This document shows positions 45,284 through 50,436 of a stretch of DNA of 64,000 nt, piece after piece; positions within the stretch are counted from its first letter, which is position 1; each line of letters begins with the position of its first letter. Location: NCBI GenBank assembly GCA_963794945.1, contig CAWCFT010000002.1, forward strand, positions 32,001 to 96,000, read 5' to 3'. The stretch is from Endomicrobiales bacterium (lineage in GTDB: Bacteria; Elusimicrobiota; Endomicrobiia; Endomicrobiales; CAWCFT01). The translations under genes were made by a program, and so were the position numbers. The notes below the pieces were generated by a model. The model saw only the letters and a list, made by a program, of their open reading frames with translations, made no database searches and had not been told where the DNA came from.

Positions 45284-46714
45284 ATGATATCTTTGACAAA
45301 GTATCAGATGCTGGATGCGGAGCTTTCGCAAATTGAGGGAGAAGACAGGCAGTTCCAGTGCAGGCAGGTCAGCGACGCCGATGTCAAGGCAATGGCTGAA
45401 ACGCTTAAAAAAGAGAAGCAGAAGGTGCCGATTTACCTGCTGCGGCGCAGGAACGGCAAATTGCAAATATTGTGCGGGTTTACCAGATATCTTGCGGCAA
45501 AACTGTTGGGCTGGGCAACAATAGTCGCTATAATTATCCCTGAAGAAGACTTTGAGAACGAAAATGAGATATATAAGTTCGGGGTAATAGAGAACGGCAA
45601 GCGCAAGCCGTTAAGTAATGCGGACAAGGGGAATATTTGCAAAAGTATGAGCGCAAGGGGCATGAACAACGTTGAAATTGGGGAATGTTTAGGCATAAGC
45701 GAAAAACAGGTGCGCAGGTATTTAAAGATAGCCAATGCCCCGGCTGAAGTGCAAAAAGGCATGAGCGACAATAGTGTTCCGCTTAGGGCAATAGACAATA
45801 TTGACCCGGCAACCGGCCAGCTCGGCACGCGTGCCGAGCAAATTGTGGATAACCCCAATTCACGCGTAAAATCAGTGAAAAACGGGTTTGACGCAACCCT
45901 GAAATTCCGGCTTGGGCGCGATGGGGCGGATTTGATCAAGAAGTTTAAGGCCAATATAGATGAGGCGTTTAAAGAAGCGCAAAAACCACAACCAGTGTCT
46001 CGGGCCAGCCATGGCGGGCTTGACCCGGCGGCTGTAAAGGCCGCAAAGGCCACGCTCAAGGCCGACAAGATTGAGGCAGACGGGATTGAAGCGGAGATCA
46101 AGCTCGGGCAGGCCGCGGTCAAGAATGCTGAAAAGGGTAAGCTCGATTCGTCCGCCATGAAACAGCAGTTACAGGAAAAGATAGATAAGCTTAAAGCGCT
46201 GAAACTCAAGATCAAAGAAGCAGAGAAGTTTTTGAAACCCGCCTCTGCTAAACCCAAAAAACCCACTATTCAACAAGCCCCAGGCCGATCATCCCAACCC
46301 CAAGTGTCATCCCAGTCCAATGTGTCATCTCCATCAAATATGTCATCTCGACCGCAGGGAGAGATCTTACCATTAGGCAATAACTCCGCTGTCGGTTTTG
46401 ACCTGATAGAATTGAAGCTGTCTTTCGACCCGTCAAAACCGCCCGCGGAAAAGCTAACCGAAATAAGCCTCACACTTAATGAATCCAAACCAATATATGC
46501 AACGGCGCAGGTTATGGGAAACCCAGTTCCGCTGGACAAAAGCAATAAAGAAATAAAGTGGCATGGCGACGGCGTTGAAGTAACGCCAAACTGGGGCCCG
46601 GAGGTAACCATAAAACTGCCCGCGCCGCTTGCCCAGCCCGGCAAGCTGACAGTCTCCTGCCGGATGCCAAACGGCAAAGACATTGAAGCAAGCGCGGTTG
46701 TAAAACAATCCTGA
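45284..46714 (+). CDS. Orphan ParB/Spo0J-like protein with HTH, coiled coil, low-complexity linker and beta-rich C-terminus
   Basis: ParB-N-like 'Q..PI.L......QILCGFTRY.AA..LGW', 'IENGKRKPLS', HTH 'NNVEIGECLGISEKQVRRYL'; AAGGAGG RBS; no parA nearby. Confidence 0.75.
   Translation: MISLTKYQMLDAELSQIEGEDRQFQCRQVSDADVKAMAETLKKEKQKVPIYLLRRRNGKLQILCGFTRYLAAKLLGWATIVAIIIPEEDFENENEIYKFGVIENGKRKPLSNADKGNICKSMSARGMNNVEIGECLGISEKQVRRYLKIANAPAEVQKGMSDNSVPLRAIDNIDPATGQLGTRAEQIVDNPNSRVKSVKNGFDATLKFRLGRDGADLIKKFKANIDEAFKEAQKPQPVSRASHGGLDPAAVKAAKATLKADKIEADGIEAEIKLGQAAVKNAEKGKLDSSAMKQQLQEKIDKLKALKLKIKEAEKFLKPASAKPKKPTIQQAPGRSSQPQVSSQSNVSSPSNMSSRPQGEILPLGNNSAVGFDLIELKLSFDPSKPPAEKLTEISLTLNESKPIYATAQVMGNPVPLDKSNKEIKWHGDGVEVTPNWGPEVTIKLPAPLAQPGKLTVSCRMPNGKDIEASAVVKQS
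45820..45839. repeat. Perfect 20-bp palindrome inside the parB-like gene (candidate parS-like site)
   Basis: GCTCGGCACGCGTGCCGAGC equals its own reverse complement. Confidence 0.6.
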
Positions 46715-47018: not shown

Positions 47019-48125
47019 ATGCTTAAATCTTTTAAGGTGGAAAATTTCAAATGTTTTAAAAATCTTGCGCTTGATGATTTTAGTCGTTTTAATATTATTG
47101 TGGGGAAAAATGCTGCGGGCAAAACTACTTTGCTCGAAGCGATCAAGATAATGCTTGATGGAGCTCCAGGATCTCTACCCTGGCTGAATAGTTTTCGCAA
47201 TATTCCCATTTTTATTCCACAAAATCCTACAGCAGAACAATTCCGGCAACAATTTACCGGATTCTTTCACGGATTCCACCATGAGATACCAATAAAAATG
47301 CATACCGTGGACTTCAACAACAGAAATGCGGCATTATCTATTTATTTTGACCCTAAGAAAGCTATTAGCATTCAGCCGAAAATTGGTTTTCAACAGTCAG
47401 CATCAGTTCCACAGCCAGACACATCATCGGTTTCACCGACAACAGTGGTGCCATTAGCATTTGATAGAATGGATTTTGAAGGTCATAGGGATATACCTCT
47501 TATCACTATCCAACCTGGCGGTCAAGTATTCTATCAACAAGGAAAATCAATGGGAATTTCTTCTGGTTTTATAACAGGCACATATATTGGATATCCCTCT
47601 GAAAATGCTACTTGGCTATCAACATTGAGCGTGCAAAAACGCAGCAAAGATGTCATAGAGGCATTACGTCAACATTTTTCATTTATAGAAAATGTAACGG
47701 TAGAAGCACCGTTTCAAGGACTCCCTCCACTTGTATACGCTGATATAAAAAATATTCCCGAGAAACTACCACTGTTTGCAGTTTCAGCAGGAATTAGCAG
47801 AATTTTTACGTTTATAGTAGCAGTAGTTACGTATGGCAAAGGAGTTTTACTAATAGATGAAATTGAAAATGGAATTTTTAACGATCAATATCAGCTTGTT
47901 TGGAAAAGCTTAATTGACCTCGCCCGGCAAAATAACACTCAATTATTTGTTAGTACGCATAGTAATGAATGTTTGCGAGCCATACTTCCCATAATGAAGG
48001 ACAACGAGGATGATTTTACGTTTCTTCGCGCTGAACATCAAAACGGAAATTCAAGTATTTCCCGATTTGACGGAAAGGAGATGGAAGCAGCTTTAGCCAA
48101 TGGAGCAGAGATACGATCGGCTTAG
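47019..48125 (+). CDS. ABC-type ATPase (AAA_15/AAA_21, AbiEii/OLD/AriA-like)
   Basis: 'FKVENFKCF', Walker A 'GKNAAGKT', signature 'VSAG', Walker B 'LLIDEIENG', 'STHS'. Confidence 0.85.
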   Translation: MLKSFKVENFKCFKNLALDDFSRFNIIVGKNAAGKTTLLEAIKIMLDGAPGSLPWLNSFRNIPIFIPQNPTAEQFRQQFTGFFHGFHHEIPIKMHTVDFNNRNAALSIYFDPKKAISIQPKIGFQQSASVPQPDTSSVSPTTVVPLAFDRMDFEGHRDIPLITIQPGGQVFYQQGKSMGISSGFITGTYIGYPSENATWLSTLSVQKRSKDVIEALRQHFSFIENVTVEAPFQGLPPLVYADIKNIPEKLPLFAVSAGISRIFTFIVAVVTYGKGVLLIDEIENGIFNDQYQLVWKSLIDLARQNNTQLFVSTHSNECLRAILPIMKDNEDDFTFLRAEHQNGNSSISRFDGKEMEAALANGAEIRSA

Positions 48126-48137
48126 AGGTGTGTAATA

Positions 48138-48791
48138 ATGGACAATTTTGAGTTTACTAAATCACACTTTTTAATGTGCGAAGGCGATGACGATAAGGGA
48201 TTTCTGGAGACTCTCATTAAAGAGCGTGGCTTACCTGATTTCCAAGTTTGTCATGCAGCGGAATGTAATGATAAAAATACGGGGGGAAGACCTGGTTTTG
48301 AACATTCTCTTGCCGGTTTCTCGATCATTAAAGGTTTCGCATATGTAAAAGCAATACTTATTGTTTCGGATAATGACACGCCTGCTTCATTCAACGAAGT
48401 CTGTAGTGCACTGACTAATAATAACTATACTGCACCAAGCACACCTAATTCAGTTGGATCAATTAAAACAAAACCAGTGGCAATTCTTATGATTCCACGT
48501 AATAAGAATGGAGATTTAGAAACGCTGTGTCTTCCGTCAATTCATGAAAAGTGGCCAAAGTCATCAGAATGCGTCACGTCCTTTCTTAGATGTACAGGAG
48601 CCGATCAGTGGCAAAAATCTTCTAGTGTTAATAAGGCTCGCGCAAGAGCTGCGACAGTCGGATTCAATGAAGAAGACCCATTTAGAGGAATAGGCCATCT
48701 GTTCAGGCGCGGCACGCTTTCTAGTAAAAATGCCTGCTTTGATGAAGTTGCAGAATTTCTCAAAAATTTCGATAAAATGTGTAATATATAG
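48138..48791 (+). CDS. TOPRIM-fold protein (DUF3226-like)
   Basis: 'LMCEGDDD' (TOPRIM Glu), 'VSDND' (DxD), 'GDLETLC'; 12 nt after the ATPase. Confidence 0.7.
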   Translation: MDNFEFTKSHFLMCEGDDDKGFLETLIKERGLPDFQVCHAAECNDKNTGGRPGFEHSLAGFSIIKGFAYVKAILIVSDNDTPASFNEVCSALTNNNYTAPSTPNSVGSIKTKPVAILMIPRNKNGDLETLCLPSIHEKWPKSSECVTSFLRCTGADQWQKSSSVNKARARAATVGFNEEDPFRGIGHLFRRGTLSSKNACFDEVAEFLKNFDKMCNI

Positions 48792-48939
48792 TTTATAAAT
48801 CCCACAGAAAAACCTATTTATAAATACCTTCTAAGATATATTTTATATTCACAACGCATAAATAAACAGAAAATGTTGTTCAGTGTTCTGTAACTAAACA
48901 AATGGTGTCACCTATGAAAGAAAAAGTCAAGGTGACAAA

Positions 48940-49150
48940 AAGTATCTCCGCAGTAGTTTCTAACTACTGATCTGTTCTGTTAAACAAGTTCTTTGGCCGT
49001 TCGCCCGCTTTGTATCGTAAGAAGCTCCGAAAATATCCGGACTTCAGTCACCTATTGGCAGCTCTGCACTTGGCGGACTGCATGATAGAATCGGGCGACG
49101 CCCCTCCGCTAATCAGACTTGTTGAAGCTGTCAGCCTTGCGGCGGACACT
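48940..49150 (-). ncRNA. Candidate bridge/seek RNA in the 3' non-coding end of the IS1111-type element
   Basis: Several hairpins (GCC-GCAA-GGC; GAAGTCCGGA/TTCGGAGCTTC; CAGTAGTT/AACTACTG) plus segments matching the reconstructed target (CAAGTCTGA) and donor (ATAGGTGA). Boundaries approximate. Confidence 0.65.
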
Positions 49151-50177
49151 TCAGGCACCATTGAGCGCGAGGGACGCCGTAGTCCGTATATAATATGGCC
49201 GCTTATCTTTCAAAACTCGATACACAATTTTCAATAAATCTCTGGCAAGAGCCACTCGCGCCACGTTGGGCGCTTTCCGTTTGGCTATAGCTTCATACTT
49301 TTCTGTTCGTTCAACGCTGCTCTTTGAAAAATGGTGAACTGCCTCAATCAATATCCACTGTAGGTGTTTACGCCGATTCTTATTTAAAGAACCGTGATAT
49401 TCTTTGTCGGCGCTCTGGAATGTTCTCGGTGCAAGGCCTGCGTACGCGCAGAGGCGGTTAAATGTTGTAAAACGGCTAATATCGCCTATCTCGCTTTTAA
49501 TAAGCAATGCACTAAAACTGCCGATCCCAGGAATACTTTCAAGATTCCGTGCGTCGGGATCACTTTCGGCTATTGCATGTAGTTGCCACCCGATACGGTT
49601 TTCACGCGCATTCAAAGCGCCTATTTGCTCAATCCAGTTTTCTGCGGCAATCCGGCACGGTTCAGATAATTTGTTCACCGCAATACCGTTCAATTGCTTC
49701 ATTGAAGTATAGTCACCCGTTGACATCTGTCCATGGCGATCAAGAAGTGACTTTAACCGTGCTGTGTTCCGCGTTCGTTCACTGACAATGCTCATCCGGC
49801 AATGCAACAGTTCTTTAATAGCTCGTATCTTCTTGTCTGGCAGCTCTACTGTAGGTAAATAGCCCTTACGGAGCACATCGGCTATAAGCCGGGCATCTAT
49901 CTTGTTCTGTTTTCTTGTTTCGTTTTGCAAATGCTTTCAGCTCGTACGAATTCGCAAGATACACCTTGTAAGCATATTCTTCGGCGAGATCAACGAAATA
50001 GTACCAATTGTAAGTCGTTTCAACTGCAAGTGTAAATGGTCGTGGGAGCGTTTTATAATATGATCGCAACACTTCTGGCAAATTTGCTATACTCTGGCTG
50101 TCAATCCGTTTGCCCTGCTCGTTCGTCACGTAAAACCAAGAACGCTCTTTGTGCAAGTCTACACCAACATAATTCAT
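49151..50177 (-). CDS. IS110-family DEDD transposase/recombinase, one +1 frameshift near 49905
   Basis: 'YVGVDLHK', 'AVETTYNW', 'KKT(D)KIDA' restored by removing one base, 'IPGIG...EIGDISRF...YAGL.P...QS', 'VALAR.L'. Confidence 0.92.
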
Positions 50178-50436
50178 GGCAACCTCCTCGTTTTGTCTTA
50201 TTGCTCGATACAATAAGTTTAACAAAACTAGATGGAGGTTGCTTTCATATTATCAGGCTTGACTTATTGAACTAAAAAGATTTTGACAAAATCTATAAAT
50301 TGACTCAATGAATAAAAACAGCGGCGATCCTGACTAAGTGATTTAAAGGACGTAAAGGATAATAGTTAGTGAAGCCGAGACAGCATTTTATAATGTCTAT
50401 AAATGAATGGTTTGATTCCGTAATCTCAAGGATACA

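Follow-up and report, generated by a model that had tools for sequence, protein, structure and literature searches.

Elements of the IS1111 group carry subterminal inverted repeats with 7-bp and 3-bp extensions (PMC11187229). In the available portions of that study, ISEc11, ISKpn4, ISPa11, and ISPst6 combine such ends with a DEDD transposase of 330 to 350 amino acids, and the seekRNA elements have a long non-coding region downstream of tnp, a promoter at the circle junction, and a top-strand target match that lies 5′ of the bottom-strand match. The ends, the circle, and the junction promoter are defining features of the family that have already been published (PMC11187229). The available text of the bridge RNA studies (PMC11208160, PMC13626964) describes, for IS110 and IS1111 elements, an RNA with target and donor loops, a dinucleotide core, and a promoter across the joined ends, with the bridge RNA of the IS1111 group located in the right end (93% predicted). 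According to the same text, IS621 differs from the element described below in having its RNA in the left end, a CT rather than a TG core, and the opposite guide order.

The window analysed here, a 64,000-nucleotide stretch of an Endomicrobiales genome, contains an element that shares the subterminal repeats, extensions, and transposase type of these systems (Table 1). With a probability of about 0.9, we read it as an IS1111-family insertion sequence, present in five same-ended copies, that is likely mobilised in the form of an excised circle, controlled by a two-loop guide RNA predicted at its 3′ end. The proposal that other copies should be sought in the genome was productive, as four were found with the same boundaries as the window copy and 98.7 to 99.7% identity (C1:137667, C1:143910, C1:172964, and C3:73591) in a search of 2.9 Mb in 19 contigs (85.9% complete). 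All five copies are about 1.35 kb long and break off from their flanks at the identical two points. A sixth insertion is indicated by a contig of the public run X1 that runs beyond the right end into the opening bases of contig C5, while a contig of run X6 spans the left junction of the window copy together with 52 bp of flank. Some of the public runs may be the genome's own source and were not counted as independent habitats.

Table 1. Positions of the element, its predicted RNA, and its target in the window
Feature	Position	Strand	Basis
IS1111-type insertion sequence, 1345 bp in the window copy	48911..50255	-	five same-boundary copies; 7+3 rule of PMC11187229
Left extension TGATAAT (core TG + right half of donor site)	50249..50255	-	identical in all five copies
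Left subterminal inverted repeat	50239..50248	-	9/10 match to right repeat
Right subterminal inverted repeat (48923-48914) + 3-bp extension AGG	48911..48923	-	sequence, copy comparison
-35 box TTGACT of predicted circle-junction promoter	48925..48930	-	17-nt spacer in 34/34 parsed right ends
DEDD transposase gene, split by one extra base near 49906	49151..50177	-	PF01548 + PF02371 on two pieces
Predicted target-loop RNA segment	49097..49178	-	helices 1 and 2: 9/13 and 6/9 pairs with changes on both sides, 24 sequences
Predicted right-target guide GGTGCC, last two codons (Gly-Ala)	49154..49159	-	reverse complement follows right flank
Predicted left-target guide AAGTCTG	49114..49120	-	follows left flank
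Predicted right-donor guide TATCA, pairs with TGATA of left end	49083..49087	-	complementarity in sequence; donor half invariant
Predicted left-donor guide ATAGGTG	49049..49055	-	one variable position follows right end
Left half of interrupted target, arm of dispersed TIR-like repeat	50256..50275	-	repeat-family member
Right half of interrupted target, core TG + ACACC	48904..48910	-	right flank comparison

The minus strand carries both junction strings exactly as an earlier, sequence-only reading of this DNA had written them. The 10/11 match which that reading counted for the subterminal repeats is also present, one base further out than the 7-bp and 3-bp offsets, at which the match is 9/10, a value reached at those fixed positions by 1 of 20,000 random 1345-bp segments. 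The repeats of the window element are at the short end of the 11 to 13 bp usual for IS1111. Placing one end of the element at 48908 has to be corrected, as by the 7+3 rule it runs from 50255 to 48911, and the proposed TGA core is too long by one base. At the right junction, TG is followed by A in 31 of 34 right ends and by G in the other 3, namely those of the C1:172964 copy and the relatives L023 and L062, and as this third base varies, it belongs to the target and not to the core. The shared core is therefore TG, which is invariant over the 34 right ends. The TGATAAT left extension, which together with the next bases holds the -10 box TAATAT at 50252-50247 on the minus strand, is nearly invariant among the parsed relatives, the motif having been required by the parser.

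The transposase, of the DEDD (RuvC-like) plus Tnp20 type, is 341 amino acids long in intact copies and is preceded by a ribosome-binding site, AGGAGG, at 50188-50183 on the minus strand. An intact sister copy scores 220.5 bits on NF033542 (cut-off 140), and D7, E53, D91, D94, and S255 are invariant or nearly so in an alignment of 26 proteins. The closest homologue with a named source, 76% identical, is from an Endomicrobiales bacterium, while the solved IS621 and ISCro4 enzymes are only distantly related (profile E values of 4e-11 and 4e-13). The sequence near the catalytic serine is GLAP----SA, in contrast to the SG or TG given for seekRNA elements in the available portions of PMC11187229. 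As in those elements, the longer non-coding segment lies downstream of the gene (240 bp vs 78 bp upstream).

The reading frame is intact in two of the five copies and shifted in three. Programmed frameshifting was rejected as no slippery run is visible and the two intact copies, together with the closest homologues, use one frame. The extra base that splits the window gene had been regarded as a single lesion of this copy and as a probable assembly indel. Only the second of these views holds up, since the same base is present in C1:137667. Its presence in two copies, both of which share three further variant positions with C1:143910, at a site that is not a long homopolymer, might suggest that the window copy is truly frameshifted and non-autonomous, moved in trans by an intact sister, with the C1:137667 lesion shared by descent. 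We consider this improbable. Each copy of the element contains the 8-mer CAGACAAG at two places, and in 5 of these 10 site-copies one and the same spot is changed, either by +A (three times) or by G to A (twice), vs 26 deviating cells of 6730 overall. All four short-read assemblies that cover 49905 (X1, X2, X4, and X7) are without the extra base. In addition, uvrA on contig C6 (L095 275-3163, minus strand) is broken into at least three pieces, one of the breaks falling at this motif. The assembly contains unpolished indels, a point to weigh for any frameshift seen in the genome. Outside the insertion sequence, frame-joining at the suspect 9-mer was found in 2 of 45 cases vs 79 of 5403 controls (p = 0.14). 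Working from assembled contigs rather than raw reads of the window copy, we infer that its frameshift is likely a motif-linked long-read sequencing error and that the window copy is likely intact.

When the two ends are joined, TTGACT (5/6; 48930-48925) comes to lie 17 nt from TAATAT (4/6). The spacing was surveyed in 57 loci (52 relatives and the five own copies), of which 39 were parsed and 34 gave a right end; the 17-nt spacer is found in all 34, several of them near-duplicates, even though the parser accepted 16 to 19 nt and the sequence of the spacer differs with that of the repeat. At the five left junctions in integrated form, no -35 box better than 3/6 is found at spacers of 16 to 18, and a promoter scan of the integrated element returned 2 sites vs 3.9 expected, none of them at the left junction. 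The earlier view that the promoter is absent from the integrated form is correct for the -35 box, which is specific to the junction, but not for TG-n-TAATAT, which is present in the integrated form also. We take this to be an extended -10-like motif, and it may give the integrated form weak promoter activity. The predicted circle-junction promoter is thus supported by its conserved spacing.

The circle itself was sought by a pattern search of the genome, which gave 2 matches at two mismatches, equal to the control, and in eight assembled runs (X1-X7 and X10), where the joint was not seen; these are low-depth contigs that drop rare forms, so the data are insensitive to rare circles. Two matches to the junction in viral contigs were dismissed as chance matches inside an unrelated gene. 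The empty allele of the window locus, whose recovery had also been suggested, was not found among 40 same-order relatives, which held only short matches, and no run covered the right flank. In the available text of the published studies, the empty site was restored for IS621 and not detected for ISEc11 (PMC11187229, PMC11208160, PMC13626964). As ISEc11 did not regenerate its empty target (PMC11187229), excision should not be taken to be scarless. At 48900-48934, contigs of runs X6 and X7 contain only the last ~26 right-end bases between a target-like left flank and a right flank; L005 has similar short stretches of right end, and in L021 such stretches are repeated in tandem. It is possible that these remnants are excision scars or assembly artefacts. 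One contig from an RNA run covers 48920-49112 only, and was not counted as expression because such libraries can contain DNA.

The 3′ tail alone folds only modestly (z -2.08), while the tail plus 30 bases of the gene end gives a two-loop fold of four helices and 40 pairs in 24 relatives. Paired cells amount to 95.2%, vs 78.3% after shuffling and no more than 49.8% in slid controls, and changes on both sides are seen in 28 of the 40 pairs, for a structure derived from the same alignment, with six predicted pairs that overlap the donor guides left out and 18 of the 57 loci dropped as not parsable for RNA. An Rfam search gave no real match. The predicted RNA occupies the same right-end position as the bridge RNA in the available descriptions of the IS1111 group (PMC11208160, PMC13626964), and the predicted guides lie in its unpaired loops. 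The right-target guide (49159-49154) comes ahead of the left-target guide (49120-49114), which is the IS1111 order with the top-strand match first, as in seekRNA elements (PMC11187229, available portions). An alternative right-target guide, AGTGTCC, just after the stop codon was rejected as it sits in the covarying inner stem.

Three of the four guides change together with the target or donor in relatives. Using one locus per guide pair, the left-target guide scored 80.5 against the left flank over 18 guide types, vs 56.8 when shuffled (0 of 20,000 permutations), and the right-target guide 68.0 against the right flank over 15 guide types, vs 58.7 (1 of 20,000), p-values that are overstated since the relatives are kin; L021, with its tandemly repeated right end, was excluded from the right-guide test. 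The change can be followed in individual guide and flank swaps, GTGGTC/ACCAC in L043, AGGGTC/ACCCT in L030, and GGTGCC/GCAC in L023, with a plain swap also in L049. In the left-donor guide, one position varies, and it agrees with the right end in 32 of 34 loci (A/A in 24, G/G in 8, and G/A in 2). The right-target guide of the element itself has a C-A mismatch at four of its five natural sites, and the only mismatch-free site, C1:172964, is not in a TIR; L016 has this mismatch too. Together, the five copies, the relatives, and the guide covariation bear out the sequence-only reading in its main claim of an IS1111-type element with a definable donor and target. At a separate locus, L098 (1927-2197, minus strand; G042:C14), the guide-RNA region and right end stand among TIR arms beside Y1 genes in a 6-kb stretch that lacks any transposase match, possibly an RNA-only derivative.

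The predicted RNA also runs into the gene. Its target loop begins inside the last 8 codons of the transposase, unlike seekRNAs, which are mapped downstream of tnp in the available portions of PMC11187229. In 27 of the 34 loci with a placeable stop, the right-target guide coincides with the last two codons of the enzyme and the stop codon opens the inner stem; in the remaining 7 the stop lies 9 to 39 bases earlier or 11 to 28 later. Overlap of guide and gene is common but not required. The protein alignment shows a conserved tail, AxxALxGV, that is missing in several homologues, and therefore the RNA rather than the peptide likely drives conservation of the tail. Our literature search found no report of a guide within coding sequence, though the overlap may be known, as the seekRNA figures giving RNA ends relative to the stop lay beyond that search.

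All five target sites conform to AAGYC-TG-RYWCC, in a single orientation, with a right flank of ACACC in three copies and of GTACC and ACTCC in the other two. Uninterrupted near-copies with a single TG are found at C2:125514, C2:130241, C5:4638, and elsewhere, and comparison of the five sites with these reveals no target duplication beyond the core. A relaxed repeat pattern, drawn from the sites themselves, has 15 genome sites vs 5 in each of two controls. The family includes the arms of a Y1 HUH gene at C15:88240-89124 (NF047646 88.2 bits, cut-off 80; DnaA-like helix-turn-helix Bac_DnaA_C weak, below cut-off), which is bracketed by two target-like arms in inverted orientation. A C15 arm shares 29 of 30 bases with the C1:143910 site and 22 of 27 with the window site. 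Among five other genomes with relatives, four have Y1 genes. In G041 and G042 these are bracketed by arms matching the local targets of the insertion sequence, and a Y1 gene of G041 (L076) has exact GGGGTCAG arms at its flanks; no matching arms were found near Y1 genes in the six loci fetched for each of G043 and G045, in a survey in which 25 of 40 matches were fetched. A second Y1 gene in the Endomicrobiales genome (C1:145821-146477) was rejected as the source of nearby targets because its flanking repeats differ: it is REP-transposase-like and flanked by its own self-complementary repeats.

This arrangement is that of the TIRtrons, or TIRYT, of TnpA-Y1 subclass 2.1, for which the available portions of PMC3733652 and 10.1101/279083 describe a dispersed repeat family and a Y1 gene that encodes a DnaA-like helix-turn-helix at the C terminus and has inverted repeats, in place of REP hairpins, on its flanks. 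The target's reverse strand, GGTGTCAG, fits the TIRtron consensus GGGGWSAS at 7 of 8 positions, a motif given for some TIRs only (PMC3733652). The likeness is one of the target and not of the insertion sequence. A TIRtron-type target differs from the attC or REP targets of the seekRNA elements (PMC11187229), and the available portions of the two TIRtron sources (PMC3733652, 10.1101/279083) make no mention of an insertion sequence inserting into these repeats. Our literature search, with most subscription papers outside its reach, likewise found no report of an IS110 or IS1111 element targeting them. Partridge and Hall reportedly described in 2003 that IS4321 and IS5075, both IS1111 members, target the terminal repeats of another element; those are Tn21-family repeats, whereas the repeats here belong to a Y1 HUH gene.

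The surroundings of the targets could also be viewed as an integron-like cassette array, the targets being its recombination sites instead of scattered transposon-end repeats. At C1:137-145 kb and C2:125-130 kb, accessory genes are framed by the motif in both orientations, and the window copy adjoins an AbiLi/PDC-M38-like pair, but attC sites are palindromic and the arms, from their sequence, are not. That same arm also forms an inverted pair directly round the Y1 HUH gene at C15, the TIRtron layout (PMC3733652), and similar arm pairs flank Y1 genes in two other genomes, so we hold the cassette-array explanation to be unlikely. Transposon-end repeats are the preferred reading, and within it the insertions could still lack a preference for TIRs, occurring at any 12-bp match of which TIRs supply many. 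Base-pairing alone suffices for the data; only three of the five insertions (window, C1:137667, and C1:143910) are in TIR arms, the other two fit the guides only, and a relaxed guide pattern has 45 genome sites. Set against this is the clade-wide tendency of guides to stay near the TIR tip, with a reverse complement of GACCCC in most and of GACACC or GGCACC in few, which from these sequences suggests selection for the TIR target class. Insertion without a TIR preference differs from our own explanation only in why the guide has its sequence, and we regard it as a real though less probable alternative. We would put at even odds a further proposal, that of a widespread IS1111 clade whose members have become specialists in the repeats at the ends of TIRYT-type HUH transposases and encode the right-target guide within the final two codons of their enzyme, with the stop codon as the first bases of the inner stem. 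The records of this clade are named Omnitrophota, Scalindua, Planctomycetia, Endomicrobiales, and others.

In the window, the insertion sequence sits between the AbiLi/PDC-M38-like pair and a membrane-protein-like gene and interrupts neither. The pair, an AAA_15 ATPase and a DUF3226 gene at 47019-48791 on the plus strand, has AbiLi and PDC-M38A as its best PADLOC matches, the second gene also weakly matching PDC-M38B, and is a candidate anti-phage pair beside the target repeat. Two paralogous genes with a ParB-like N terminus, at 45284-46714 of the window (plus strand) and at C2:123759-125375, lie ~46 kb apart, each near a TIR-type repeat. Elsewhere, a KilA-N gene next to a copy of the insertion sequence is enclosed by a direct repeat, at C1:143960 and C1:144947, whose end is the same TIR-tip motif, and a SIR2-like gene lies between two other arms.

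The ends, TG core, transposase family, folded RNA, guide covariation, and repeat identity described above are seen directly in these genomes, and a route of transposition can be proposed from them by taking excision, junction transcription, RNA release, and recombination at TG from the family (PMC11187229, PMC11208160, PMC13626964). Excision would join the right end to the left end, bringing TTGACT to 17 nt from TAATAT, and the resulting promoter would drive both transposase and RNA, the latter being released from the transposase message. The target loop would then pair with the bottom strand of AAGYC-TG and the top strand of TG-RYACC, the top-strand guide coming first, while the donor loop would pair with the joined ends, and recombination between circle and target would take place at TG. 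The 12-bp target forms the tip of the terminal inverted repeat that belongs to a TIRYT-type HUH transposase, and as copies of it lie between genes, most insertions likely land in intergenic, accessory DNA.

If the overlap of guide and gene is as proposed, each retargeting event would rewrite the tail of the protein, and the functional RNA would have to be cut from the transposase message, tying translation termination to guide release. There would be practical consequences as well, as the right-target guide would be absent from RNA cloned from the stop codon onward and would be lost on codon optimisation of the gene end, and pipelines that model only intergenic DNA could miss the target loop. 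The value of the element is as a fully specified bridge recombinase candidate for tool mining, with a TG core, readable guides, and natural retargeting variants. An insertion sequence clade that homes on TIRtron ends would, moreover, mark these little-studied repeats in many genomes.
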